From NCBI GenBank assembly GCA_937954085.1, contig CALGAK010000125.1:43224-107223 (forward strand): a DNA stretch of 64,000 bases, written 5' to 3'. This document shows, piece after piece, positions 7,307 through 61,200 of the stretch; position 1 is the stretch's first letter; each line of letters begins with the position of its first letter. The notes below the pieces were generated by a model. It saw only the letters and a list, made by a program, of their open reading frames with translations, was not told the origin of the DNA and ran no database searches. A program made the position numbers and the translations under genes. This stretch comes from an uncultured Bacteroidota bacterium. GTDB taxonomy: Bacteria > Bacteroidota > Bacteroidia > Bacteroidales > M50B96.

Positions 7307-8275
7307 TTAGGGCGAATTCAAGAGGATTACAGCTTGCTTAAAACCCCATTCTGGCAGCACCACCCAATACATGCCGGGAGGAAATCCGGTTAAATCAAGT
7401 GGTCTGGACACGAGCTCCCTCCTATCCGAATAAACCAGCCTTCCGGAAGCAGCAAAAACATACACCGATAGGTTTGTCTGCGCGGAAAAACCCGGAGCAT
7501 CGAAATAAAAAACTCCGGTTCCGGGATTCGGGAAAAGGTGAATCGTGGATTGAAACGGATTATCGGGCTGAACCGACAGAATTCCGGTTAGATTTCCCGC
7601 TCGCTCAATAACGTGAATCGCATTAACCGAGTAGAATCCATCCACATACAAATCGCTTAATTGATAATCGACCTGCAGAAAATAGGCACGGGTCGTACTC
7701 GAATCGTAAAACGCTACACGATAGGGCTCGTCGATGGCAAAGCCATCTACTTCGGGAGTTTCCGGGGCGTCGCCCCAAGCAGCGAGAGCCATTGCCCCAT
7801 TGCCCGACCAACGACTGTAACCTCCGCAATGAAATGCATTGTTCTGTTCGTAGAAAACCCCAAAATAGTCGCCGGCCTCGGCTACAAATCCTTCCAATTC
7901 ATTGGGCCGAATTAAAATGGTTGCATTTTGCCCGGTTAAAGCAAAGGTCCAATCGAAAGGAGCAGGTTCAAATACCTCTGCCTGAATCAAAAATGGATGG
8001 GAATTCGCATCAATCAAATAGGCGCTGTACATTCCAGCTTCTAACTGATAAAGGGTAGGTTCGTGAACGCCGTTGTTCCAATAAATATCGAAAGGTGCTT
8101 CTCCTTCGATGAGGCGAAAATCGAGCATCCCATCGCTTGCACCCGGACTGGTGGGAGACACCGTGAGTAGGTCGTAACGCAAATCGGCCTGAGCATTCAC
8201 TGAAAAAGAGAACAAAGTGAGCCCAAGCAAAGTGACACGAGCAACTAAAAACAAGACGTAAGGCATGAGATGCAT
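7307..8275 (-). CDS. Secreted T9SS cargo protein of unknown function
   Basis: It has a signal peptide (LTLFSFSVNAQ), a degenerate SprB-like repeat (GASDGMLDF...YWNNG) and a conserved WxF-TGxNxTILI / GDYFGVFY module. The T9SS CTD reads HLFPNPGTGVFYF...GMYWVVL. Confidence 0.8.
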   Translation of the reverse strand: MHLMPYVLFLVARVTLLGLTLFSFSVNAQADLRYDLLTVSPTSPGASDGMLDFRLIEGEAPFDIYWNNGVHEPTLYQLEAGMYSAYLIDANSHPFLIQAEVFEPAPFDWTFALTGQNATILIRPNELEGFVAEAGDYFGVFYEQNNAFHCGGYSRWSGNGAMALAAWGDAPETPEVDGFAIDEPYRVAFYDSSTTRAYFLQVDYQLSDLYVDGFYSVNAIHVIERAGNLTGILSVQPDNPFQSTIHLFPNPGTGVFYFDAPGFSAQTNLSVYVFAASGRLVYSDRRELVSRPLDLTGFPPGMYWVVLPEWGFKQAVILLNSP

Positions 8276-8362: not shown

Positions 8363-9229
8363 ATGAAAAAACACCTACTCTTTTTGGCTGTTATGTTGTT
8401 GCTTAGCTATTTGCCAAGCCAGGCACAACGTCAATTATGGACAGTCGGTACCGCTAATACCATGTCGAAAGGAGATATCCGCCTGGGTATCGCACAGCCT
8501 TCAGCCTATGGCCTATCGAATAGCCTCGAGCTGGCAGCAGGAGGATTCTACTTCCCCCTGGCGCCCAATGTAGCCTTGAAAAAACAGTGGATCAAAACGA
8601 AAAATCTCAGCCTTGCCAGCCGCCATGCCGCTACCTATCCGGGACCTCTACTCAGAAGTATTTCCGATCTGTCGTATTTCAACTATTTCCCCGATAAAAA
8701 TATCATTCCCGATGCCCTCGGAGTAAAATCGGAAATCATACTAAGCCTGGGTTTTGGATACACTACTTGTCCGGCATTTACCAGCGAAACCTTTAACCGA
8801 AACAATACCTTCAAAGGGCACACGGGCATACTAAGTTTTAAATTGGGCGCTCAAACGGGCTTTCCATTAGGCGATATTCCTTTCCCAATTATCGAAGAAG
8901 CGGTTATCCATCCTCAAACAGCCTTTTTTAATGAACAAATTAGTGCCTATGCCGGTATAGACTGGGACGGTCGTCTTTTAAAATACAGCGACATCAAAGT
9001 AGATTTGGATTATACTTACCTAAATACAGATTCCTGGGCACTGGAACATAAAACACAGGTTAACTGGTATCATGGTTGGCGCTATTTTCACTTTTTGTTC
9101 GGCTACTATGCCTCCTATGTGCAAGGACCCACACGTTCCTTCTTCTTCATTGGGCCGGTAATCGACTTTATGTGGACTTTACGCAAAGACAAAATCCAAA
9201 AAGGATTGTTTAAAGAAAAAATGTTTTAA
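8363..9229 (+). CDS. Hypothetical exported protein, possibly an outer-membrane beta-barrel
   Basis: It has a signal peptide (LLLSYLPSQAQ), alternating aromatic/glycine-rich segments and a terminal Phe. I recognise no family. Confidence 0.45.
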   Translation: MKKHLLFLAVMLLLSYLPSQAQRQLWTVGTANTMSKGDIRLGIAQPSAYGLSNSLELAAGGFYFPLAPNVALKKQWIKTKNLSLASRHAATYPGPLLRSISDLSYFNYFPDKNIIPDALGVKSEIILSLGFGYTTCPAFTSETFNRNNTFKGHTGILSFKLGAQTGFPLGDIPFPIIEEAVIHPQTAFFNEQISAYAGIDWDGRLLKYSDIKVDLDYTYLNTDSWALEHKTQVNWYHGWRYFHFLFGYYASYVQGPTRSFFFIGPVIDFMWTLRKDKIQKGLFKEKMF

Positions 9230-21881: not shown

Positions 21882-24800
21882 TTAAATCCATTTCACCAGA
21901 TTAAAATCCTGACGATGGGGCAAATCGGTATGATGCGCAAACATCCTGACACCAATTTGAATGGCTCCTGGCTTCAAGGGTTTGAATTCACATTCGTAAA
22001 ATGCCATTTTCCCTTCGGTTTTAACCAAACGATAGGGCAATTGTTGCTCTATTTGAATGCGCTGTTTCCGATTCTTACTGGCCAATACTAATTCCAGCGA
22101 TAAATCTTCAGGATTCATTTCTCCTAAGTGCAAGGTAATTCGGGTCGTTAAAGGCTCTCCAATGGTGAGGTTATGCAAATCGACCGAGGTTAAATCGTTC
22201 GAAACTATGCGGATTTCATTCCAGGATTTTTGGACTCTTTTCTTCCACAAGGTAAGGCCATGAGCTAACTCGTAATCGTCGTCCTTCATGCGGTAAGTAC
22301 GCTCTAATAAGCGTTTATAAAAGCGTTCCTGATAATGCTCAATCATTCGTTTCATCGTAAACTGGGGAGCAATCGCTGCAATGGAATTCTTCATATAACT
22401 AACCCACTTAACCGGAATTCCATTTTCGGAATAATCGTAATATCCGGGGGCAATTTCCTGCTCAATGATGTTGTACAAGAGCTCGGCATCCAGCTTGTTT
22501 TGTAAGTCCTGATCCTCGTAGGTGCGTTCCATCGGTAATGCCCATCCGGCATTTTCGCGATAACCTTCAACCCACCAACCATCGAGTACCGAAAAATGCA
22601 AGCCACCATTCATAACTGCTTTCATTCCACTGGTACCACTGGCCTCCAAAGGACGAGTAGGAGTATTTAACCAAACATCTACTCCCTGAACTAACTTCTT
22701 CGCTAATTCGATGTCGTAATTCTCTAAAAAGAGAATCTTACCTAAGAACTCAGGCTGACGGGAAATATCGACAATCTTCTTGATAATTTCCTGTCCGGGA
22801 ATATCGTTCGGATGCGCTTTTCCGGCAAATAAGAAAATAATGGGGCGATCGGTGTCGCTTAATATCCGGCGTAAGCGTTCAATATCCGAAAATAATAAAT
22901 AGGCACGCTTATACGTGGCAAAACGACGGGCAAATCCAATGATGAGACTATGCTCATCGAGGTTTTTCAACACTTCGGTAATGCTGGTCGGACTCTCATG
23001 ACGACGAAGCCAATTGGTATTAACGCGCTCTTTGAGGTAATCGATTAGCAGTTTTTTCTGATGCAGATGGATGTTCCAAACACGCTCGTCGGAAACGTGG
23101 CGAATGTGATTCCAATGGCTAGGCTGATGCTGTTCGTAAATAAAATCTTTACCAAAAACTTCCTCGTATAATTGCTGCCATTCGGGTGCTGTCCAGCTCT
23201 GATAATGAACACCATTGGTCACATACGAAATATGAAGTTCATCGGGATAATAGGCAGGATACATTGGCTGAAACATGTCCTTGCTAATTTCGCCATGTAA
23301 CCAGCTAACCGCATTCACTTCCTGCGATAAGTTAACCGCTAGTAAACTCATGGAGAAATTCTCGGCCTTATCTTCTACCTTCAATTTACCCAAAGCTAAG
23401 AACTCTTCCCAGCTAATTTTCAACCGATAAGGATAATGGCTCATGTAGGTTCGCAGCAAATCTTCATGAAAGGAATCGTGACCGGCAGGTACCGGGGTAT
23501 GGGTCGTGAACAAGGTCGATACCCGAACAATTTCTTTCGCTTCCTGGAAGCTCATCTTCTCGTGGTAAATGAATTTACGCAATCGCTCTAATCCAATGAA
23601 AGCAGCATGTCCTTCGTTGCAATGATAAAGCATCGGATCGATTCCCATGGCATCGAGGGCACGAATACCTCCTACCCCGAGAATCATTTCCTGTTTCAAA
23701 CGATTCTCATTATCGCCACCATAAAGAGCATGGGTTATAGCTCGGTCGGCTTCCAGATTATCGTCTAAATCCGTATCTAACAAGTAGAGTTTGATGCGGC
23801 CAACCTTCACTTCCCAAATCTTTGCATACACTGTTCTTCCGGGGAAAACCACCGAAATCTTTCGTTCATTTCCTGCTTCGTCCAGCACCGGCTCAACCGG
23901 GATAAGCGAAAAATCTTGCTGAGGATATTCGGCTACTTGCTCGCCTTTTAGAGAAATGATCTGACGGAAATAACCGGTACGATACAGCAAGCCAATTCCA
24001 ACCATGTTCACGCGGGAATCGGAAGCTTCTTTTAAATAATCGCCCGCTAAAATTCCCAATCCACCAGAGAAAATCTTCAAGGAATCGTGGAAACCGAATT
24101 CCATGCTGAAGTAAGCAATGTGTTTTTCGGGTTCAAGAAAGGGAGTGTGCATGTAAGCATCGAATTGCTTCAGTACATCGTGATAATGCTTTCTGAACGA
24201 ATCATTTTTCTCTAAATCGCTAAAGCGATCGTAACCAATCGAATTGAGCATCACAATCGGATTATAGCGGCTCGCACGCCACAGCTCTTCATCGATCGAT
24301 TTCCATAATTCAATAGCCGAATAGTTCCACGTCCACCATAAATTCTGCGCCAGTTCTTTTAAACGGGCATAGCTTTCGGGCACATAGGATTTAACCAGTG
24401 CCTCGTGCCATTTAGGGCTAAGCGACTCATCGGGTTTATGAGTAGGTAATTCAGCAATGGAAAATAAGTCGGTGAATTGGTCGCGTCGTTCATCGGCTTG
24501 CACCAATGCTTTACTCCAGGCTTCGCGAATAAGCGGGAAGAAAGATTCCCAACGTGCCTCTTTCGCTATGGCAAAAGCACTTTCCGACTGCAACTGATAC
24601 TCTTCCGGACTTAAATGCGAATACTGATGCATCCAATTCGCAATGGATTCCACAATCTCATCGTCGTTATGCTGATTCCGATGAAGCAAATGCAAGCCTT
24701 TTTCGGTATTCAAGCCCGACTTGATAACCCATTTTCCAAAACCCGATTGATCGGTTGCAATGGATGGAATACCCATGGAAATACTTTCGAGAGGCGAATA

Positions 24801-26126
24801 GCCCCAGGCTTTATACAATGCCGGAAACACTGTTAAATCGAAACCGGCTAAGAGGTCGCTATAAGGCCGGTTGAACAAGCCATCCTTTCCGTTTAAAAAT
24901 GCGGGAACATAAATTACTTGTAAAGTATGATCGGTGGCATTTTCCGAACCAATTTCCTTCAAAATAGGAACAATACTATCCGATTCGGTATCGTGTAATC
25001 CATGCGAAATGAAAGGGAAATCGGGAGTATCCAACAACTTACCTGATTGATAGCGGTTTAAAACTTCTTTCCGAACACCATAGTGAGGAGCACGCACAAA
25101 AACATAGGCAACGATTGATCGCTTGAGTTGATTTTTTTCCTTTAATTTTTTTAGCGCCTCGAGAAATACATCTACTCCTTCGTTTCGAAAGTTCTTCCGA
25201 CTCACGTGAGCAACAAAAAAGGCATCAGCGGCAGGTTTCTGGCCCGTAATTGCCTGGCTAAATTCCAGCAATGCTGCTCGGGAACTACTCCGTTTTTCGG
25301 TCCAACCCGATACTTCTTCGTGAGCTAAATCGATTCCATTGGGTGTGATTAAATCCACATTGCTACCAACCGTTTTGCGATATTCATCGGCTACAATGGT
25401 ACTCACTACCGTTAAAGAATCGGCTTGAGAGGAAGCAATTTTTTCGATAGAGACTTTTGAAACAGCCTGATGATTGGCAGCCATTTCGTGAAAATTCAAG
25501 GAAGATAATTGATCGAGATAAGCATAGTAATCTTCCTTGGCTAAAAGACTACCCATTACGGTATCGTGTGCCGTAAAAACGGTCGCCACGTAAGGTGCTT
25601 TTTCCTTCAGATACAAGATTCCCGCTCCGGAGGTCCACTCCTGAAAATGGGCCACTACTTTGGTTTGAATCGTAAAATGATAGCGGGTGAAGCTTTCGAT
25701 TACTTTTCCGGCAGCATAACCAAATAAAATCGGTTCAACATAATCCCACTGACCGGTTAGCGAGTCGAGCTGATAGCGTTCCCAAAAATGACTGAGTATC
25801 TCATTCTTTTGAGCGATAAAAGGGGTAAAATCGACAATGATAACGACAGGATTGGCAGGAATTTTCCAGCGACCGATACGAACCCGTAACCCTTCTTTTT
25901 CCGCATAAGCCCTCCACGATGCATATAACTCTTTGTCTTCGATAAATTCGGGATGTGTTTGCGTTTCGCGATACACATCGGGACCAATGGAAATGAAGTT
26001 TTGTTGAAACTCGCTGGCATAAAGGCCCGCTTTGGAGGTAAGCATGCTATGTACTCCACCGGAGCGGTTACAAACTTCCCAATGTGCTTCGAATAAAACT
26101 TCTGGTTGTTGAGCGTGTGAATTCAT
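21882..26126 (-). CDS. Fusion protein: GT3 (eukaryote-type) glycogen synthase domain plus alpha-glucan phosphorylase (GT35, GlgP-type)
   Basis: The N-half contains LFEAHWEVCNRSGGVHSMLTSKA. The C-half contains the DUF3417-like LWWTWNYSAIELW and the PLP-Lys motif EASGTSGMKAVMNGG. The ORF is one uninterrupted run of 1414 codons. Confidence 0.8.
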   Translation of the reverse strand: MNSHAQQPEVLFEAHWEVCNRSGGVHSMLTSKAGLYASEFQQNFISIGPDVYRETQTHPEFIEDKELYASWRAYAEKEGLRVRIGRWKIPANPVVIIVDFTPFIAQKNEILSHFWERYQLDSLTGQWDYVEPILFGYAAGKVIESFTRYHFTIQTKVVAHFQEWTSGAGILYLKEKAPYVATVFTAHDTVMGSLLAKEDYYAYLDQLSSLNFHEMAANHQAVSKVSIEKIASSQADSLTVVSTIVADEYRKTVGSNVDLITPNGIDLAHEEVSGWTEKRSSSRAALLEFSQAITGQKPAADAFFVAHVSRKNFRNEGVDVFLEALKKLKEKNQLKRSIVAYVFVRAPHYGVRKEVLNRYQSGKLLDTPDFPFISHGLHDTESDSIVPILKEIGSENATDHTLQVIYVPAFLNGKDGLFNRPYSDLLAGFDLTVFPALYKAWGYSPLESISMGIPSIATDQSGFGKWVIKSGLNTEKGLHLLHRNQHNDDEIVESIANWMHQYSHLSPEEYQLQSESAFAIAKEARWESFFPLIREAWSKALVQADERRDQFTDLFSIAELPTHKPDESLSPKWHEALVKSYVPESYARLKELAQNLWWTWNYSAIELWKSIDEELWRASRYNPIVMLNSIGYDRFSDLEKNDSFRKHYHDVLKQFDAYMHTPFLEPEKHIAYFSMEFGFHDSLKIFSGGLGILAGDYLKEASDSRVNMVGIGLLYRTGYFRQIISLKGEQVAEYPQQDFSLIPVEPVLDEAGNERKISVVFPGRTVYAKIWEVKVGRIKLYLLDTDLDDNLEADRAITHALYGGDNENRLKQEMILGVGGIRALDAMGIDPMLYHCNEGHAAFIGLERLRKFIYHEKMSFQEAKEIVRVSTLFTTHTPVPAGHDSFHEDLLRTYMSHYPYRLKISWEEFLALGKLKVEDKAENFSMSLLAVNLSQEVNAVSWLHGEISKDMFQPMYPAYYPDELHISYVTNGVHYQSWTAPEWQQLYEEVFGKDFIYEQHQPSHWNHIRHVSDERVWNIHLHQKKLLIDYLKERVNTNWLRRHESPTSITEVLKNLDEHSLIIGFARRFATYKRAYLLFSDIERLRRILSDTDRPIIFLFAGKAHPNDIPGQEIIKKIVDISRQPEFLGKILFLENYDIELAKKLVQGVDVWLNTPTRPLEASGTSGMKAVMNGGLHFSVLDGWWVEGYRENAGWALPMERTYEDQDLQNKLDAELLYNIIEQEIAPGYYDYSENGIPVKWVSYMKNSIAAIAPQFTMKRMIEHYQERFYKRLLERTYRMKDDDYELAHGLTLWKKRVQKSWNEIRIVSNDLTSVDLHNLTIGEPLTTRITLHLGEMNPEDLSLELVLASKNRKQRIQIEQQLPYRLVKTEGKMAFYECEFKPLKPGAIQIGVRMFAHHTDLPHRQDFNLVKWI

Positions 26127-26269: not shown

Positions 26270-26331
26270 AAAATTCCGTTAAGATTTTTCTTTCTTCACC
26301 TAAAGGGATCGGAGATTCTTAACGGAATTTT
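26270..26331 (-). terminator. 15-bp perfect inverted repeat between the GH57 gene and the fusion gene (terminator/attenuator-like)
   Basis: AAAAATTCCGTTAAGA at 26270-26284 pairs with TCTTAACGGAATTTT at 26317-26331 around a 32-nt loop. On the minus strand it is followed by TCTTTAT. Confidence 0.4.
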
Positions 26332-26352: not shown

Positions 26353-27639
26353 TTAGGCTTTTTTCTTTGCCTTCACTTTGCGCAAGGCTGCTTGATACTG
26401 CTTGATACTTGCCTCAAGCTCTTCTTGACTTAGATCGGAGGAAAGGACCTCCGGAGCTGTTTTGCTCACCCGAATACTAAAATCGCTCAACACATTCATG
26501 TAGTTAATAAATGCATCGTAGGGCGATTGATACGGGTTGAAATACTTGTGCACATCGCCATCGGAGAACCATTTGGTGCACATGTAGTAAAAGTGATCGC
26601 TGGTTTGCAAGTTGAGCCAATCGCGCTGCAGGCCAGGATCGTTTACTTTTTCCATTGCTTCGCTTAATTGATACAATTTTGCAAAAGCTTCATCCTGAAG
26701 CTCATTTCCTAACCAAGCGGTAAGGTCGCGTTCTTCGTCGGCCCAGGATATGGTATTTGGCACATGAACCGCAGCTACAGCATCGTACTTTTTAGCTACT
26801 TCGGAAGGAGTGATGAAATCGATTTCTGTCCGATCGATAATTTGTTGCGGAAAAGCTTTCAGAAATTCAAAAATACCGGATTCAGCTGGTTGATGCTCTC
26901 CAAAAGTTTCATAGTCCATGAAAAGATTTAACACATCTTCCGCCGGATCGAGTGCTTGTATCCAGTTCACGTATTTATCGGCGGTAAGTGGCCATTGTTC
27001 CCAAGCTTGATTGCTAAATCGGAAAGCGATGTCGTCGCTCATCCGAAAATTTTTCAGCAATAATTTCAATTTCGGATTATTAGCATTGCAGTACACATAA
27101 TTCGGGCTCTTCCATCCAAGAACGTGTTTAGCACCTTCGGTAAGCATGGTTTTATATCCCATGTTTGCCACACGCTCTCCAATTACATCGGAGTAAATGA
27201 GCTCGGTATTACGGAAAACCTTGGGAGTTAGTCCAAAATGTTGCTTAATCTTATCGGCGTGTAGTTTAACCTGTTCCTTGAATGCTTTTTCTGTTTGGAG
27301 GGAAACCAGCGAGTGGCTGTATGTTTCGGCAAGAAATTCCACTTTACCGGTATCGGCGAGTTTTTTAAAACTCTGCAACACTTCAGGCGCATACCATTCG
27401 AATTGCTCCATGGCTGTGCCGGATATAGAAAAACTCAATTTAAACTTGCCACCATTTCGCTCGATCAAATCAAGTAAGATTTGATTGGCTGGTAAATAGG
27501 AATTCCTGGCTACTTTTTGCATGATGCTCCGATTCGCATAATCGTCGTAGTAATAGGAATCGTTTCCAATATCGAAAAATCGGTAGCGCTTTAAACGAAA
27601 AGGCTGGTGCACCTGAAAGTAGAGACAAATCGATTTCAT
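26353..27639 (-). CDS. Glycoside hydrolase family 57 (alpha-amylase-like)
   Basis: The GH57 conserved regions are YFQVHQPFR, GKVEFLAETYSHS, FRNTELIYS, MDYETFGEH and TSDHFYYM. Confidence 0.85.
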   Translation of the reverse strand: MKSICLYFQVHQPFRLKRYRFFDIGNDSYYYDDYANRSIMQKVARNSYLPANQILLDLIERNGGKFKLSFSISGTAMEQFEWYAPEVLQSFKKLADTGKVEFLAETYSHSLVSLQTEKAFKEQVKLHADKIKQHFGLTPKVFRNTELIYSDVIGERVANMGYKTMLTEGAKHVLGWKSPNYVYCNANNPKLKLLLKNFRMSDDIAFRFSNQAWEQWPLTADKYVNWIQALDPAEDVLNLFMDYETFGEHQPAESGIFEFLKAFPQQIIDRTEIDFITPSEVAKKYDAVAAVHVPNTISWADEERDLTAWLGNELQDEAFAKLYQLSEAMEKVNDPGLQRDWLNLQTSDHFYYMCTKWFSDGDVHKYFNPYQSPYDAFINYMNVLSDFSIRVSKTAPEVLSSDLSQEELEASIKQYQAALRKVKAKKKA

Positions 27640-27754: not shown

Positions 27755-29065
27755 TTAAATAGCTGAATTAGTCTTAGAAAAATGCCTCAAAGTTTCGGAA
27801 TAAACATCGATTACTTTAACGGCAGCATTTTCCCACTTAAGGCTCTCTACCTCCGCTTTACCGTGCTCTCGGAACATCTTGTTAAGACCTTCGTACTGAA
27901 GTAAACCATAAATCGCATCGGCCATCGCATCTACATCCCAAAAGTCGACAGTAACTGCATGTTTTAAGATTTCGGCGACCCCCGATTGTTTCGAAATAAT
28001 TACCGGAACATTCGAACGCATGGCTTCTAGTGGCGATATGCCGAAAGGTTCGGAAACCGATGGCATAACGTAAACATCGCTTAGGTTAAACATATTGGGA
28101 ACTTCGTCGCCTTTAAGGAAGCCGGCAAAATGAAACCGGTCGGCTATTTTCAATTGCGCTACCCTTCGAATAATTTTGTGCATCATATCGCCACTTCCGG
28201 CCATAACAAAGCGCACATTGGGATATTTTTTCAGCACCTTAGCCGCTGCTTCCACAAAATACTCAGGTCCTTTTTGATAGGTAATTCGTCCTAAGAAAGT
28301 CACAATCTTTTCATCTACTCCTTTGGTGTACTGAAAATCGGATTTCATTTCAACGGGCTCAACGGCATTGTGTACCACCGTAACTTTCTCGGGTGGAATG
28401 CCATACTTTTCAATGACCGTTGTTCGGGTTAAGTTACTTACAGCTATTACCTTATCGGCGGCCATCATTCCTTCGCGCTCAATTTCGTAAATGATGGTAT
28501 TTACATTTTCACCTGTACGGTCGTACTCCGTTGCATGAATATGCACTACAAGTGGTTTTCCACTCACCTCTTTAGCAGCTATTCCGGCTTTGTAAGTGAG
28601 CCAATCGTGTGCATGGATAATATCGAACTCGTTTTCGGAAGCAATCACCGAACCCAATAAAGCGTATCGGGAAACTTCTTCGAGTAAAGTGGGACCATAT
28701 TTGCCAGAGAATTTAAAATCGCCGGAAAAAACCGACTCAAAATCAGTTTTCTTTTCAACAAAATCCTCCGATTGAATTCGTTCGTATTCCTCCGGGCTCA
28801 AATAGGGAATAAGCTTCGCTCCTACTTCGATGTAAGTAAGACGAGACCAAAACTCGCTATTCTTATAGATTCGCTCGCTTAGCTGAACTCCTTCGGCTTG
28901 CTTAATTTTTAAAAAGGATTCATCCTCATCGCCATAAGCTTTAGGAACCACAAATACGATATCCACTAAATGATGGGCTAAACCGCGAGTGAGACCATAA
29001 CAGGCCGTACCTAAACCTCCGGTTATGTGAGGGGGAAACTCCCAACCAAACATGAGTACTTTCAT
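27755..29065 (-). CDS. GT4 glycosyltransferase (alpha-glucan/glycogen synthase-like)
   Basis: The N-terminus is MKVLMFGWEFPPHITGGLGTACYGL and the C-domain motif is PSVSEPFGISPLEAM. It sits between the GH57 gene and the debranching-enzyme gene. Confidence 0.8.
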   Translation of the reverse strand: MKVLMFGWEFPPHITGGLGTACYGLTRGLAHHLVDIVFVVPKAYGDEDESFLKIKQAEGVQLSERIYKNSEFWSRLTYIEVGAKLIPYLSPEEYERIQSEDFVEKKTDFESVFSGDFKFSGKYGPTLLEEVSRYALLGSVIASENEFDIIHAHDWLTYKAGIAAKEVSGKPLVVHIHATEYDRTGENVNTIIYEIEREGMMAADKVIAVSNLTRTTVIEKYGIPPEKVTVVHNAVEPVEMKSDFQYTKGVDEKIVTFLGRITYQKGPEYFVEAAAKVLKKYPNVRFVMAGSGDMMHKIIRRVAQLKIADRFHFAGFLKGDEVPNMFNLSDVYVMPSVSEPFGISPLEAMRSNVPVIISKQSGVAEILKHAVTVDFWDVDAMADAIYGLLQYEGLNKMFREHGKAEVESLKWENAAVKVIDVYSETLRHFSKTNSAI

Positions 29066-29225: not shown

Positions 29226-31187
29226 CTAGTTTGTTGTTTTTGGGTTTTCAATTCGATCGATTAAGGCGCGCATTCGTAATAGTTCACCCACACTCATAGC
29301 ATAGCTAATGGCTCCGCCGGCTGCATGGGGTGGATCTCCATCGTGTATTTGAGAAATGGTACCCAGCGCATTTTTCGACATTTCTTCTTCGAAACCGAAG
29401 TATAGATTTTTAATCACATTCAAACCCGATTTCTCATAAACCCGCCAGTAAGCATCGGCAAAAGCACCTAATAGCCATGGCCAGGCAGTACCCTGATGAA
29501 AGGCTTGTTCCCGTTCATCGGCATTACCCGAATAATATCCTTTGTAATGAGGATGTTGCGGACTCAAAGTTCTTACTCCTCTTTCAGTAAGCAATTCATT
29601 CTTAACCATATCGACCACCTCTTTCATCTGATCGAGGGTAAGCATGGTGTAGGGAAGCGAGACTGCGAATAGCATATTGGGACGCACCGACCAATCGGTT
29701 TTCAAATCGTGAGCATAATCGGCTAAGTATTTTCGGTCTCGATTCCAAAAAGTTCTTAGAAATGATCTTTTCACACGTTCAGGTTCCGCTTTCCACGCTT
29801 CAGTAAATTCTTTCTCTTTCAAGCGTTTTGCTAATTCCAGAGCAAATTCAATGGCATTGTACCACAAGGCATTAATCTCGACGGTAAAACCACGGCGCGG
29901 AGTTACGGGTCCTTTCGCAGTGTAGGCATCCATCCAGGTTAGCGCTATTCCTTCCTGACCTTGCCAGATAAGTCCATTTTCCGCTTGATGGATATTGAAA
30001 TCCGTTCCTTTTCGGTAAGATTCTAAAATAAGGCTGATAACCGGCCAATAGCTTTTAGCAATCTCGGATTTTTTGGCTGAAGCATGATACAATTGCTGAA
30101 CCGACCAGATAAACCACAAAGGAGAATCGGCTGCTTCGTATTTCATTTGAACCCCACGACCCACTGTTGGAAAAAGAGGACCATTCATGTCCCGAATCAT
30201 CGAATCCAGAACCTGACGATAGGTTTTGGTATTATCGTCGGTAAGGAGTAAACCGGGAAGCGAAATAAAGGTATCTCTACCTCCACGACCATACCAAGGA
30301 TAACCGGCCATGATTTCGGATTTTCCTTCGAAGTTTACCAGAAATTGTTGAGCCGCATTCTTCAAATTGTTATCGAAACTATCGCGAGGGACGCGTGATT
30401 GGAGTTCTTTGGTAAAATAACGGGTAATACTGCTCGGTGTATTTTCCTTCAAGCCGGCCGAGAAGATAATCGATTCATCTTTTTTAATGGAGAATTCGAA
30501 AAAGCCCGGAACAAATAAATCTTCGCGGAACTCATATCCTCTTTTTTCTTCTTCGATGTATTCGATATTTCGGTACCAATCGGGAACAGAAATAAACTCT
30601 GCCTTTTTATTGGTTTGCATGTGCAAGAAAGGATAGCCTTCGTAGAGTTTAATTTTGATTCCATTGGGAATATGATCGAACCGGGTATTTGCATACAAGT
30701 TCTCTTTACTTAACTGATGCACATTCCGAAAAGCCAGAAAAGGTTGCAGACGAATCTTGGTTGGGCTGTGAGCATCGAGCAAGGTATATCGGATTAGAAT
30801 ACGCTCATCGTTTTGAACTAAGAGGGTTTCTCGTTTCAACTTAACCCCACCAACCCGATAGATGATGGCCGGAATAGGGTCGAGTTCAAAATCCATGGCA
30901 TACTTATGTCCTTTGGGTTCCCAATTATTTCCCTGGTATTTATGCAATCCGAGACGAAACTCGGCACCACGCTGAATAATCGTTTCATCCAAATCGGATA
31001 AAATTACATGATTATCGAAATCGAGGTTCGGAACCGGAGAAACCAATAGGCCATGGTATTTCCGTGTATTGGAACCAATAAGCGTGGTGTTTGAATAGGA
31101 ACCGGCCCGGTTGGAGCGGAGTAATTCCAATCCAAGCGATTGTTCCAAATTAATCAATTGCTGTTTATTAATTTTTAGATAGCTCAT
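29226..31187 (-). CDS. Amylo-alpha-1,6-glucosidase / archaeal-type glycogen debranching enzyme
   Basis: The N-domain contains GSNTRKYHGLLV. The C-terminal (alpha/alpha)6 GDE_C-like region contains TWMDA...PVTPRRG...EINALWYNA. Confidence 0.85.
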   Translation of the reverse strand: MSYLKINKQQLINLEQSLGLELLRSNRAGSYSNTTLIGSNTRKYHGLLVSPVPNLDFDNHVILSDLDETIIQRGAEFRLGLHKYQGNNWEPKGHKYAMDFELDPIPAIIYRVGGVKLKRETLLVQNDERILIRYTLLDAHSPTKIRLQPFLAFRNVHQLSKENLYANTRFDHIPNGIKIKLYEGYPFLHMQTNKKAEFISVPDWYRNIEYIEEEKRGYEFREDLFVPGFFEFSIKKDESIIFSAGLKENTPSSITRYFTKELQSRVPRDSFDNNLKNAAQQFLVNFEGKSEIMAGYPWYGRGGRDTFISLPGLLLTDDNTKTYRQVLDSMIRDMNGPLFPTVGRGVQMKYEAADSPLWFIWSVQQLYHASAKKSEIAKSYWPVISLILESYRKGTDFNIHQAENGLIWQGQEGIALTWMDAYTAKGPVTPRRGFTVEINALWYNAIEFALELAKRLKEKEFTEAWKAEPERVKRSFLRTFWNRDRKYLADYAHDLKTDWSVRPNMLFAVSLPYTMLTLDQMKEVVDMVKNELLTERGVRTLSPQHPHYKGYYSGNADEREQAFHQGTAWPWLLGAFADAYWRVYEKSGLNVIKNLYFGFEEEMSKNALGTISQIHDGDPPHAAGGAISYAMSVGELLRMRALIDRIENPKTTN

Positions 31188-41676: not shown

Positions 41677-42990
41677 ATGAGCCAAGTAAGGGATAAATTT
41701 TACTATGCAAAAAAAGAAGGATGGGTTTCTCTTTGGGCGAACCTTTTTCTCTTTATCATTAAGTTTTATGCGGGTATTGTTTCCGGCTCCGTGGCCTTGA
41801 TTGCTGATGCCTGGCATACCCTTTCCGATTCGCTTTCATCTTTAGTAGTGCTTGTAGGTGCCAAAATCTCCCAAAAACCTGCCGACCATGACCATCCATT
41901 CGGACATGGCAGGGCCGAATCGGTGGCCTCTATCATTATTGGCGTTTTACTCGTATTGGTGGGGGTTAATTTTGCAGTGGAAGGGGTACAACGACTAATG
42001 GATCGACAAGATGCCAACTACGGAACCATTGCCATTGTTGTTACTATTATCTCGCTCGTTGTTAAAGAATTACTTGCACAATATGCCATACGCCTGGGCA
42101 AGCGTTTTAAACTGTATTCCCTCATTTCCGATGGTTGGCATCATCGGTCCGATTCCATTTCCAGTTTCGTTATTCTAGTGGGTATTTTTCTGGGTTCCTA
42201 TTGGTGGTGGATCGATGGGGTGCTTGGCTTTTTAGTAGGCCTCATGATCGTTTATACCGGTGTAGTCATTATTCGAAATACCATTCAACCCTTGCTCGGC
42301 GAGCATCCTAGCGAGGATTTAGTCCAATCGATTACGGCACTTGCTAATCAAATTTCCGAACACAACCTACACCCTCACCATTTTCATATCCACAAGTATG
42401 GCGAACACAGCGAAGTAACCTTCCATATCCGTTTGCCCGGGGAAATGATTTTGAGTAAGGCTCATCAGATTACTTACGATTTTCGAAATATTTTACGAGA
42501 AAAATTAGGCATGGAAGCGACCATTTATCTTGAACCGGAACTACCCGACTTGGAAAAGGGAAATATTATACGCTTTTCGGGAAACGATGAAAAACTTTTA
42601 CATCGCGCTATCGAAATACGAAAGAAAGTATTTGTGGAAGAACAAGGAGTCGACGAACAACTCGAAGTGGATGGGAAAGACAAAAACTGCATTCATTACT
42701 TGGTTCACAGTAAAGGAAATTACTATGCTACTGCTCGATACAGACAAACAACCGATGGAATCAAGTTAGAGCGGTTTGCGGTAATGAAGCCTTTTAGGAA
42801 TAAAAAAGTAGGAGAGGTCTTACTGCGGTTTATTCTCGACGAGTTAAGTCATCAAAACCAAAAGGTGTACCTCCATGCTCAGGACCGTGCTGTCAATTTT
42901 TATTTGCGGGCCGGCTTTGAAATTAGGGGTGATGAGTTCGAAGAGGCTGGAATCAAGCATTTCAAAATGATTTATCCGGTTAAACAATAA
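41677..42990 (+). CDS. Cation diffusion facilitator (CDF) transporter fused to a C-terminal GNAT acetyltransferase domain
   Basis: CDF motifs are SGSVALIADAWHTLSDS and DGWHHRSDSISS, followed by a ZT_dimer-like region. The GNAT part runs from about 42553 and includes EEQGV, FRNKKVGEVLL and NFYLRAGFE. Confidence 0.8.
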   Translation: MSQVRDKFYYAKKEGWVSLWANLFLFIIKFYAGIVSGSVALIADAWHTLSDSLSSLVVLVGAKISQKPADHDHPFGHGRAESVASIIIGVLLVLVGVNFAVEGVQRLMDRQDANYGTIAIVVTIISLVVKELLAQYAIRLGKRFKLYSLISDGWHHRSDSISSFVILVGIFLGSYWWWIDGVLGFLVGLMIVYTGVVIIRNTIQPLLGEHPSEDLVQSITALANQISEHNLHPHHFHIHKYGEHSEVTFHIRLPGEMILSKAHQITYDFRNILREKLGMEATIYLEPELPDLEKGNIIRFSGNDEKLLHRAIEIRKKVFVEEQGVDEQLEVDGKDKNCIHYLVHSKGNYYATARYRQTTDGIKLERFAVMKPFRNKKVGEVLLRFILDELSHQNQKVYLHAQDRAVNFYLRAGFEIRGDEFEEAGIKHFKMIYPVKQ

Positions 42991-57992: not shown

Positions 57993-58205
57993 GTACTAAA
58001 TAAATTGCTAATTACTTTTCTGTAAAATTTAGTTCACAAGTTTGTAAACAAAAGTGCTGAATCCCGCTCTAAATCAGATGTTCAGACCATCATTATTAAA
58101 TTGTTTATAATTTGTTTATTACTTTTATGTTCTCTATATTTACTGCTTATTTTAGGTAAAATCTAAGTTTTGAAGGAAGATAAATTTGTGGAGTACAAAA
58201 AAAGT

Positions 58206-61200
58206 ATGAAAAATCTTTTCTTGTTGCTGGTTTTTGTTGTGTTAACAGCAGCTTTTGGCAGTATTTACGGGCAACAATCGGTCAATATTTCAGTCTATTA
58301 TGGAGGATTTGGAAATGAGTGCTCGTGGGAAATCGTTGAGAATCTTTCCGGCGATGTAGTCCTTTCCGGTGGCCCCGGAGCCAGTTCCAGCTTCAGTTAT
58401 AATAGTCCCCTTAGTCTAAATCCCGGAGAATATACCTTCCGCGCATTCGATTCCGAAGCCGACGGATGGTCTGATCCCGACGGGTATTACGCCATAACAC
58501 CAAGCTTCGGAACAGCTACCGGGAATATCCTTTTCCCAACAGGTTCTGAGCAAGAAACAAGCTTTACCATCCTTTCTCCCAATTCGGTCGAGGTAGGTGT
58601 AGTGGAATGGCTCAATCCAACCTCGGGTGCCGGGCTGAGCGCAAACCAAAGCATCACAGTAAAATATCGGAACTACGGAACTACCGCATTATCAAATCCA
58701 AGTTTTAGCTACTCCATCAACGGAGGGAATAGCTTTACAACGGAACTTTATGCTGGTTCAATCGCACCGGGAGCTACTGTCGATTATACTTTCTCGCAGT
58801 CGGCGAACCTAGCAAACCCTGGAACCTATGCTTGTGTAGCTGCTGCCGATAAAGCAGGCGATACCTACAGCGGAAACGATACGCTCGAAATTTCCATTCA
58901 ATCGATTGCAGCGATTACGAGCTACCCATACAGCGTTAACTTTACAAACTGGCCTCCAGCTAACTGGCAGCTTACCGGAGGTACCAACCAATGGCAACAA
59001 GATCCTAGCAACGCTGCCTTAGCAAAATTTTCGTTTTGGAATGGTGGAAATGCTATCCTAACTACACCACCGTTTAGCCTGCCAAGTCCTGCAACCTTGT
59101 CCTTTAACTGGTCTAGCTACTTTAGCCCCATCGCTCTGAATGATGCCTTGTACTTGGAGGTTTCGAATAACAACGGACAAGCCTGGCAAACAATCTGGTC
59201 CAAAGAAGGGATTGAGCTTTTTTCCAACGATGGGGTTACACTAGCTGCTCCTGGTTCCTATGCCTCCGAATCGGTCGATCTGTCCTCCTACGCCGGCTCC
59301 ATCGTGATGTTCCGTTTTAGAGGAGTATCCGGTTACGGCCACGATGTTTATATCGACGATTTTCTGGTGAGCATAAACCCCACCTACGACCTTGCTATAA
59401 CCAGTCTCACCAGCCCGGAAGTAAATGCTTGTAACCTGGGGCAAAACGTTCCAGTTACCATTGCAGTCAAAAACCTGGGAGCACAAATGGCCAGTAATTT
59501 TAGCTTGAGTTATAGTCTCAATGGTGTTGTCGTCGATACCGAAAATTTTACCTCCTTCCTCCCCGCAGGTGCTACGATACAACATACTTTTTCGACTCCG
59601 GTCGATTTTTCAACACTCGCTCAAGCGGAATTCGATTTTTCACTCTCATACGGACTCGACCTAAATGCCAACAATAATCAACTAACCGATGTAGTTGTTT
59701 TAAATTCAACTTCCATCAGTAGTTTTCCAGCATCAATCGATTTTGAATCATCAACCGAGAACTATTTAGCCTTCCTGTCCAACGATCAATCCAATGCCTC
59801 GGTTCAACCCGATGGAAGTAACAATCAATGCCTTCGTTTCGAAGGAGGAAATGTTTCGCAATTATGGATAGGTAGTGCTGATCCAAGTGCAACCAATGCT
59901 ACAACACCCACTCAAGCCTGGGAAATAAATACTCCCTATCATGCTGAAGCTTATACCTGTTCAATCGATGCAACCTCTTTGAGCTCACTCGAACTATTCT
60001 TCGACTTAAAACAACGATACAATTCAGGAAAATTAAACTCCTGGTTCAGGGTATTGGTCAATGGAACGCCCATTGCCGACATCGATGGGAATAATCATTT
60101 TAATCCCGAGACATCCTACAACGATACCTATGTGAATAGGCACTACGATTTATCGGCTTATGCGGGAACTCAATTTGTGCTTCAATTTCAAACAGCCAAC
60201 AAATTTAGCTCTAGCTATTCCTTTCCAGGAGATGTTGCTTTCGTCGATAATATCCTACTGCGCGAAATTCCACCGCCCGATATCGCATTGGTGGAGCTTA
60301 TCAATCCTGTCACCACTTGTGGTTTAGGGAACGATGAGGCGGTTAGTTTCTCCCTAACAAATCTTGGAGGAGAGAGTGTTTCTAATTTTACGGTTGAAGT
60401 TGATATCGACGGAGTAAACCTTATTTCGGAGGTATTCACAGGAATTTTATTGCCGGAGGATACCTTAACCTACACCTTAAGTAATACACTGGATCTTTCC
60501 GCTATTGATACCTACACTTTTGAAATGGAGCTTATCTTATCGGGCGATGTAAACACTCAGAATAATGCGATTTCAACCAGTATTGTAAATCATTCAAGCC
60601 CAAATGTCTCAATAAATGGTTTAAATAGTGAGTTTTGTTTGTATGAACAGGCAGTCACTTTGCAAGGAAGTCCAACTGGTGGAAGCTTTTCTGGAAATGG
60701 AGTCGAAAACTCTGTTTTTTATCCTATTAACGCCGGTTTAGGTCAACACACCATTCACTATGTTTACTCCGATCCACTTATCAATTGTGAGGTAGCAGTA
60801 GAGCAAAGCGTTTCGGTAATTGGCGAAGAAGTGTCCTTCACTGGACTCGACGAAAATCCTGAATTAATCGATGTTTTAGTAGTTGTCAATTATAATTCCT
60901 TTGCACCCTTAGAACAATCGTGGCAAATTGTCAATGAGTCGGGTACTGTAATCCTCGATAGTCCTACCGGAAATTACAACGGCTTTACATACAATGGTTC
61001 TATCCAATTACCGGTCGGGGAGTATTACTTCATTGCTTCCGACGTACCAGGAAATGGCTGGAATAATAGCTATTACGAAATTACTCCCGATTTGGGCGAA
61101 GGAACCGGAGTTCAAACATTTACTGTTTTACCCTTCAACGTTCCAACAAATCAACAAATTGATACTTTTCAGGTTGGTGTTCCTGTAGAATTTTGTGCCA

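Follow-up and report, generated by a model that had tools for sequence, protein, structure and literature searches.

A glycogen synthase-phosphorylase fusion from a Bacteroidales bacterium with an apparently charge-swapped and eroded synthase active site

The window analysed here is a 64,000-nucleotide stretch of contig CALGAK010000125.1 (assembly GCA_937954085.1, positions 43,224 to 107,223 of the forward strand) from an uncultured Bacteroidota bacterium of the order Bacteroidales, lineage M50B96. On its minus strand it carries a gene for a protein of 1414 amino acids (aa), in which a module of the glycogen synthase family GT3 (glycosyltransferase family 3) is joined through a linker to a clade-2 alpha-glucan phosphorylase (family GT35). 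To judge from its sequence, the protein belongs to a known fusion family and is a member whose synthase active site has been charge-swapped and eroded. Alignments and structural models indicate that, in the synthase half, the fold of GT3 is preserved and its active site is not. The reading that we slightly favour is that the phosphorylase is active and that the GT3 module has been retained as a pseudo-synthase, or as a strongly altered synthase, which serves in structure, in regulation, or in the binding of glycogen or a ligand. An earlier note on the same DNA had described the protein as a chain-elongating and a chain-degrading enzyme covalently linked. This description seems fair for the canonical members of the family and doubtful for the window protein.

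The synthase half and its altered donor site

The open reading frame (ORF), the GT3 module and the codons discussed in this section are as follows (hGYS1, human GYS1).

21882..26126, minus strand: whole fusion ORF, 1414 aa (GT3-like module, linker, clade-2 alpha-glucan phosphorylase)
24459..26105, minus strand: GT3 glycogen-synthase-fold module, aa 8-556 (Pfam, phmmer, AlphaFold2, Foldseek)
25641..25643, minus strand: Gln162 codon, giving AHFQEW for the invariant AHFHEW (hGYS1 H180); clade-specific
25563..25565, minus strand: Asp188 codon, beside the conserved His187 (hGYS1 A206, a donor-glucose contact); clade-specific
25548..25550, minus strand: Ser193 codon, at the glucose-binding hGYS1 R211; altered in the window's own subclade only
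25179..25181, minus strand: Glu316 codon, at the diphosphate-binding Lys position (hGYS1 K337; E. coli GlgA K305)
24810..24812, minus strand: Lys439 codon (AAA), at the first Glu of E-X7-E (hGYS1 E510; E. coli GlgA E377)

Whether the N-terminal half scores as GT3 was a point that the earlier note had put up for checking, and it does. The Pfam model Glycogen_syn (PF05693) matches the fusion at 3.2e-65 over aa 13-345 and a second stretch, and its score of 221 bits against a cutoff of 27 passes the GT3 family threshold. In phmmer comparisons, E-values of 1e-54 to 1e-51 were obtained for the module against human GYS1 and yeast Gsy2p. Its AlphaFold2 (AF2) model has a predicted local distance difference test score (pLDDT) of 86 and a predicted template-modelling score (pTM) of 0.86. 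Foldseek with this model gives template-modelling (TM) scores of 0.8-0.86 to Gsy2p and GYS1, and its best 39 matches are exclusively Gsy2p, GYS1 or C. elegans gsy-1 (TM 0.76-0.86). With the human and yeast enzymes the window module shares the fold and the N-terminal glycine loop motif at an identity of 22-25%, and it keeps the equivalents of GYS1 R331, H205, E181, Y493, W512-G513-Y514 and E518. The eukaryotic tetramerisation insertion (human aa 374-441), however, is shrunk to about 21 aa, no Arg is found at the positions of the glucose-6-phosphate arginine cluster of GYS1 and Gsy2p, and the alignment with the human enzyme stops near human aa 587, short of its C-terminal tail. Of the eukaryote-type GT3 enzymes, whose N-terminal signature the earlier note had pointed out, the module has the fold and that signature, and it lacks the arginine cluster and the long tetramerisation insertion.

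In the donor site, the GYS1 segment 'GRYEFSNKG' aligns with 'SRKNFRNEG' in the window protein, and 'SYYEPWGYTPAE' with 'ALYKAWGYSPLE'. Of the diphosphate-binding Arg/Lys pair (hGYS1 R331/K337), the Arg is kept as R310 and the Lys is replaced by Glu316; Lys is found at position 316 in 114 of the best 120 homologues. In place of E-X7-E the window motif is K439-X7-E447, and the swap is accompanied by P440A. In addition, hGYS1 K39 corresponds to Arg21, and the uridine-stacking position (hF481) is variable across the swapped clade, being F, L, H or R. According to the cryo-electron microscopy study of GYS1 (PMC9287172), K337 together with R331 neutralises the UDP diphosphate, and E510 binds the donor glucose. 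The exchange E510A is cited in PMC7264703, from Cid et al. 2000, as inactivating human glycogen synthase. For E. coli GlgA, K305 is tabulated as a residue of the 'phosphate-handling network' and E377 as a 'glucose positioning' residue. The GlgA sequence used for this mapping was checked against the residue table in PMC13456619. An equivalence of Q162 with E. coli GlgA H161 was considered and rejected, since the counterpart of H161 is the conserved H187, and that of D137 is E163.

The distribution of these changes was followed in 397 collected GT3 sequences, among which the swapped clade is made up of the window protein and six 90%-identity clusters (P0001-P0006). The quartet Q162-D188-E316-K439 was found in 15 of the 397, all in this one clade. 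The combination H-A-K-E occupies the same positions in 321, and nearly all of the others also keep Lys and Glu at the swapped positions. In neighbour-joining trees of both modules the swapped clade is monophyletic and lies deep within the canonical fusions, with the canonical P0007 as its sister. The clade-specific rewiring is a derived state. The stem branch of the clade is long in the GT3 tree, at 4.6 times the median, and less so in the GT35 tree, at twice the median. Each of the swap codons changed by a single transition (AAG to GAG; GAG to AAG or AAA), and the Lys/Glu swap is invariant in the clade even though the GT3 modules of its subclades are only about 49% identical. As a separate observation, P0319, a protein of 586 aa from a canonical lineage, has GRYEFKNEG, that is, the Lys-to-Glu change alone, with an unchanged YYEPWG; this sequence represents either an intermediate one step into the swap or an error in sequencing.

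The divergence is concentrated in the synthase half. Columns conserved in at least 95% of the canonical fusions were taken as invariant, which gave 130 columns in the GT3 module and 231 in the phosphorylase. Members of the clade depart from the conserved residue in 19-30 of the 130 GT3 columns, but in only 1-5 of the 231 phosphorylase columns, the canonical median being 1 in each. Within the clade, the window's own subclade deviates at 28-30 GT3 columns and the remainder at 19-21, the window protein itself at 30. In all seven members, 14 of the 130 GT3 columns and 0 of the 231 phosphorylase columns are altered (Fisher p = 4e-7). The ratio of GT3 to GT35 divergence is 1.8 in the swapped clade vs. 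1.1-1.4 in canonical pairs. When the locus is compared with its canonical sister, identity is 81% for the GT4 glycosyltransferase encoded nearby, 78% for RuvB, 73% for the GH57 (glycoside hydrolase family 57) protein, 63% for the phosphorylase, 61% for the debranching enzyme and 43% for the GT3 module. The earlier note had taken the N-terminal half to be a working, UDP-glucose-using elongating enzyme. This is doubtful here, with K337 replaced by Glu316, E510 by Lys439 and R211 by Ser193, and with 30 of the 130 columns changed.

Changes at synthase residues are also seen in neighbouring lineages. In 121 fusions, 14 key donor-site and catalytic GT3 positions were scored, and in 106 of them all 14 are canonical; the window protein has K316E, E439K, R193S and K21R, and in addition H162Q and A188D. 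At least two changes were found in 12 sequences, 11 of which fall in one clade of 15 tips in the GT35 tree, namely the seven swapped proteins together with P0008 (R193E, R310C, Y443N), P0011 (G23S, R193H, R310H), P0013 (K21N, G23S, R193S) and P0014 (K21N, G23S). The last four, among the closest canonical relatives of the clade, retain the canonical Lys and Glu at the swap positions and have lost the other residues independently. P0007, P0009, P0010 and P0012 remain canonical, and the losses differ by branch. Such branch-specific losses are the pattern expected if GT3 catalysis is dispensable in this group but the domain is not. They suggest that the synthase module has been inactivated recurrently in this Bacteroidales lineage.

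The fusion, its phosphorylase half and its family

The remaining parts of the fusion are listed below (ScGP, the glycogen phosphorylase of Segatella copri; PLP, pyridoxal phosphate).

24390..24452, minus strand: flexible inter-module linker, aa 559-579 (pLDDT <50 in the AF2 model of aa 1-1200)
24078..24383, minus strand: DUF3417 region, aa 582-683, which aligns with the N-terminal region of the S. copri phosphorylase of known structure (Pfam; PMC12912991)
22314..24119, minus strand: phosphorylase catalytic core, aa 670-1271 (TIGR02094; 50% identity to ScGP, PDB 9L6I)
22908..22928, minus strand: RRFATYK motif with R1067, R1068, Y1072 and K1073 (ScGP R507, R508, Y512 and K513), phosphate/substrate residues
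22620..22622, minus strand: PLP-binding Lys1169, equivalent to ScGP K609 (ScGP alignment)
21885..22313, minus strand: C-terminal beta-sheet domain (GlgP_C), aa 1272-1414, clade-2-specific (ScGP alignment)

The fusion ORF has 1414 codons, an ATG start and no internal stops, as the earlier note had described. That a GT3 glycogen-synthase fold and a GlgP-type, PLP-dependent phosphorylase share one polypeptide, also claimed there, is borne out by Pfam, TIGR02094, AF2 and Foldseek. In the C-terminal half, Pfam finds DUF3417 (4.5e-30, aa 582-683) and Phosphorylase PF00343 (2.2e-35), and the NCBIfam model TIGR02094 for alpha-glucan family phosphorylases scores 855.5 bits against a cutoff of 191.7 over aa 670-1271. 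The equivalog model NF041129 for Thermococcales maltodextrin phosphorylase stays at 771 bits, below its cutoff of 1500. The three motifs quoted in the earlier note are found where it had placed them: LFEAHWEVCNRSGGVHSMLTSKA at aa 11-33, LWWTWNYSAIELW at aa 596-608, and EASGTSGMKAVMNGG at aa 1161-1175 (nt 22602-22646), the last containing the PLP lysine K1169. Its module boundaries were adjusted. The GT3 module, which it had ended at about 545, is refined to aa ~8-556, and the start of the phosphorylase, which it had set at about 595, moves to aa ~565. In the AF2 model of aa 1-1200 (pTM 0.61), two confident modules are separated by the low-confidence aa 559-579, and no confident interface or arrangement between the modules was obtained. 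The linker is variable in sequence and constant in length, the spacer from the invariant R547 to W573 being 23-27 aa in 121 of 121 fusions.

It is extremely improbable that a sequencing or assembly error removed a stop codon and so joined adjacent GT3 and GT35 genes. A naturally split version does exist, in the JGI (Joint Genome Institute) metagenome 3300029922 (L009:383-6085). There, GT4 and GH57 genes are followed by a GT3 gene of 556 aa with its own stop, then by 153 nt and a GT35 gene. The gene order (GT4-GH57-GT3-GT35) is that of the window and the break point maps to the window linker; the L009 locus, however, has two ORFs, and its GT3 protein (P0124) carries the canonical Lys and Glu at both swapped positions. 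Against an error, the uninterrupted ORF is also present in independent assemblies with identities of 96% (L001), 75% (L002) and about 60% (L005). More than 100 relatives are 1400-1433 aa long, and the length of the linker is conserved. In the comparison with L001, the ratio of non-synonymous to synonymous substitution rates (dN/dS) amounts to 0.058 in the GT3 part, 0.032 in the phosphorylase core and 0.078 in the C-terminal domain; both halves of the fusion are under purifying selection. With independent assemblies, more than 100 relatives of the same length and a low dN/dS in both halves, a frameshift or missed stop was rejected and an assembly artefact is essentially excluded. L001, from the metagenome-assembled genome (MAG) Bacteroidales bacterium M50B96, was the sole relative returned by a scan of the genome collection, and no gene whose product is identical to the window protein is recorded in the contig index.

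The phosphorylase half was compared with ScGP, a clade-2 enzyme solved and assayed in 2026 (PNAS, PMC12912991). The C-terminal 851 aa of the window protein, from aa 564 onward, align with ScGP end to end (923 bits) at an identity of 47% overall and 50% in the core. Residues 1272-1414 align with the ScGP C-terminus through its last residue at 30% identity, and the corresponding family, PF28476 GlgP_C, is recorded on homologues of the fusion. All of the ScGP catalytic residues K609, H316, R507, R508 and K513 are kept, as K1169, H876, R1067, R1068 and K1073 of the window protein. The proximal AMP-site residues Y512 and E278 are likewise kept, whereas R583 of the distal AMP site is Lys. ScGP forms a pentameric ring that wraps glycogen, and AMP induces its stacking to a decamer (PMC12912991). 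It is a stand-alone protein of 852 aa, whereas the window phosphorylase bears a 560-aa GT3 module on its N-terminal loop. By these alignments, aa ~565-1414 of the window protein constitute a complete clade-2 PLP-dependent alpha-glucan phosphorylase, which looks fully competent. By analogy with ScGP, it most likely releases glucose-1-phosphate from the ends of glycogen chains.

The synthase-phosphorylase architecture is not new. It is widespread in Bacteroidota and is already annotated by automatic pipelines, so that the fusion is less novel than the earlier note had implied. Among the candidates scored, more than 3000 proteins match the fusion at E <= 1e-10, and the best 120 of these are all 1400-1433 aa long with a domain set identical to that of the fusion. 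As the earlier note had expected, similar ORFs bear automatic names, 'glycogen phosphorylase/synthase' or 'phosphorylase/glycogen(starch) synthase' at JGI and 'alpha-glucan family phosphorylase' at NCBI. We take the family to be KEGG orthologue K16153 (EC 2.4.1.1 + 2.4.1.11). K16153 has been used in one paper as a marker of alpha-glucan synthesis. The family includes a protein of the cultured Bacteroidales species Tenuifilum thalassicum (P0097, CP041345). Like the window protein, P0097 and the family have about 1415 aa and the order GT3, linker, DUF3417, phosphorylase, GlgP_C; overall identity of such members to the window protein is 48-55%, and the operon in which the fusion lies, described in the next section, is common to both. 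With the GT3 module as the query against cluster representatives, fusions of about 1400 aa were returned mixed with stand-alone GT3 proteins of about 540-600 aa. In a second search with the N-terminal module alone, the matches listed (n = 120) were all of 984 aa or less, with no full-length fusions and no new swapped members among them. P0121, a stand-alone GT3 protein, lies at the contig end of a gappy MAG, and no other glycogen genes were found in the genomic context of P0174. Two alpha-glucan enzymes in one polypeptide are also known from GlgA-GlgB (Waddlia, Estrella), TreS-Mak and GlgB-MalQ (Neisseria). These fusions, however, involve other enzyme families, and none pairs a synthase fold with a phosphorylase that degrades the same polymer.

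The glycogen operon and other features of the window

The fusion gene is the last of the operon GDE-GT4-GH57-fusion, whose other elements are the following.

29226..31187, minus strand: archaeal-type glycogen debranching enzyme (GDE_N + GDE_C), first gene of the operon
27755..29065, minus strand: GT4 glycosyltransferase with canonical HAHDW, GRxxxQKG and E-X7-E motifs
26353..27639, minus strand: GH57 glycoside hydrolase, 428 aa, upstream of the fusion (Pfam 1.4e-76)
26274..26327, minus strand: 16-bp hairpin (GAAAAUUCCGUUAAGA...UCUUAACGGAAUUUUUC) with U-run, between the GH57 and fusion genes (dG -20.1 kcal/mol, z -3.4)

The same gene order recurs in L002, L003 and L004, and the contig of L005 begins inside the GH57 gene, which again is directly upstream of the fusion. 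The placement of GH57 is thus repeated in L002-L005, and also in L009. The amylo-alpha-1,6-glucosidase family, to which the debranching enzyme belongs, was classed as GH133 in a 2024 review. The 2024 Chemical Reviews article places the GH133-GT4-GH57 cluster in archaea as well. No solved structure is related in sequence to the GH57 protein and no NCBIfam model covers it, which places it in an uncharacterised GH57 subgroup. The hairpin, which begins 26 nt past the end of the GH57 gene's stop codon, probably acts as an intrinsic terminator or attenuator and would partly uncouple GDE-GT4-GH57 from the fusion gene. The corresponding spacer in T. thalassicum, from GH57 to the fusion, measures only 12 nt.

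The motifs of the GT4 protein (HAHDW, GRITYQKG and EPFGISPLE) are all intact, and structurally it comes closest to GlgM (6TVP) and archaeal GlgA. With identities of 81-88% to its relatives, it is more conserved than any other protein of the operon, and also than RuvB. These features make it a candidate for the actual chain-elongating enzyme. In Pfam scans of the 64 kb, no galU, glgC, glgB or pgm was found. No tRNA genes and no Rfam families at the gathering threshold were found in the window either.

Elsewhere in the window, the ORF at 41677-42990 (plus strand) joins a CDF transporter (cation diffusion facilitator; Cation_efflux + ZT_dimer) to a GNAT acetyltransferase domain at the C-terminus. 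A protein of 1745 aa (58170-63407, plus strand) carries a C-terminal sorting domain for type IX secretion and shows weak matches to CARDB and MAM-like domains; for most of its length there is no family match. Pfam gives no match at E <= 1e-5 for two further ORFs, at 7307-8275 (minus strand, 322 aa) and 8363-9229 (plus strand, 288 aa).

Possible roles of the GT3 module

The architecture, the residue changes, the selection pattern and the operon are observed directly; that the synthase activity has been lost or altered, and which enzyme could substitute for it, we infer. The reading that we slightly favour can be put as follows. The donor site would have been rewired by K316E and E439K, a reciprocal charge swap, together with H162Q, A188D and, in the window's subclade only, R193S, so that the GT3 module would no longer be a canonical UDP-glucose:glycogen glucosyltransferase. 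Purifying selection would keep the module for a non-catalytic or altered role, which may be to hold the phosphorylase on the glycogen particle, to bind a ligand, or to regulate or assemble the enzyme. Chain elongation would pass to the adjacent, highly conserved GT4 with its intact catalytic motifs, and the reverse phosphorylase reaction may add to it. The sequence evidence argues against canonical EC 2.4.1.11 activity in the window protein. A precedent is provided by the chlamydial GlgA-GlgB fusions, in which one module is inactive.

Several points weigh against the pseudo-synthase interpretation. The GT3 module is under strong purifying selection (dN/dS 0.058), and the retained R310, E447 (ribose), Y422 (uracil), H187, E163 and WGY loop fit continued binding of a nucleotide sugar. 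A reciprocal K-to-E and E-to-K exchange at residues that flank one ligand looks like a compensated pair and not like decay. The proximity of E316 and K439 is deduced solely from their shared ligand, and their coupling is beyond a statistical test because the swap is a single evolutionary event. As for the proposed substitute, the 2024 Chemical Reviews article leaves the function of the GT4 unresolved, with a speculation that it is an uncharacterised glycogen synthase in one methanogen. Finally, in agreement with the earlier note, full-text literature searches brought up no work on the fused protein, whether biochemical or structural.

Some of these points are what a fully bifunctional enzyme would lead one to expect. 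In that case, the Lys/Glu exchange would be a compensated, salt-bridged pair, the GT3 module would elongate chains from UDP-glucose and the phosphorylase would degrade them on the same particle, with the reciprocal control, glycogen cycling or primer supply that the earlier note had proposed. This, the principal rival, seems rather less probable than not. It would account for a swap that is exactly reciprocal, takes a single transition in each codon and does not vary within a clade whose subclades share only about 49% identity in their GT3 modules, for the contact of both residues with the same donor molecule in hGYS1, and for the low dN/dS and the kept residues. Moreover, the UDP-glucose-dependent glycogen synthesis that the earlier note had mentioned for Prevotella is indeed documented. 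However, to judge from the roles of the residues, a positive charge at the anomeric carbon and a negative one at the leaving diphosphate would be the opposite of the retaining GT-B mechanism. The donor site is altered at A188D, R193S, P440A and the variable uridine-stacking residue as well, 19-30 of the 130 invariant GT3 columns have changed in the clade, and sister lineages lose other catalytic residues without compensation. A related proposal, which we regard as unlikely, is that the module is an active glycosyltransferase with an inverted catalytic dyad (Lys for Glu, and Glu plus Asp188 for Lys); a metal ion bound there might neutralise the leaving group, or the donor might be a different one.

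It is also conceivable, and in our estimation quite unlikely, that the rewired pocket has acquired a new ligand or reaction, be it metal-assisted chemistry through the carboxylates of E316 and D188, another sugar donor, or a sensor of UDP-glucose or sugar phosphate that controls the phosphorylase. A burst of substitutions fixed at invariant positions on the stem of the clade and followed by strong purifying selection would agree with such a change, as would the two new acidic and one new basic residue lining the donor pocket. The conserved length of the linker suggests a constrained spatial relation of the modules. There is, however, no positive evidence for a particular new ligand or chemistry, and the AF2 model (pTM 0.61) gives no confident interface between the modules. 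The window subclade is still losing conserved residues (28-30 vs. 19-21 columns), which is more like a continuing relaxation.

Bacteroidota glycogen metabolism proceeds without GlgC and with a eukaryote-like GT3 synthase, and is poorly defined. The locus described here shows that a synthase module can go on under purifying selection after its hallmark catalytic residues have been lost or rewired. The GT3 module may act on the phosphorylase in a second role that involves no catalysis, and the GT4 of the operon may be the real, or a redundant, chain-elongating enzyme. For the swapped clade, automatic 'EC 2.4.1.11' labels, such as those behind metagenomic counts of alpha-glucan synthesis, would over-call synthase activity. 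Should the inverted dyad turn out to be true, the protein would hold a natural charge-swapped retaining GT-B active site coupled to a phosphorylase that degrades its product. In general, the reciprocal Lys/Glu exchange can be regarded as a natural experiment on the electrostatics of retaining GT-B enzymes.

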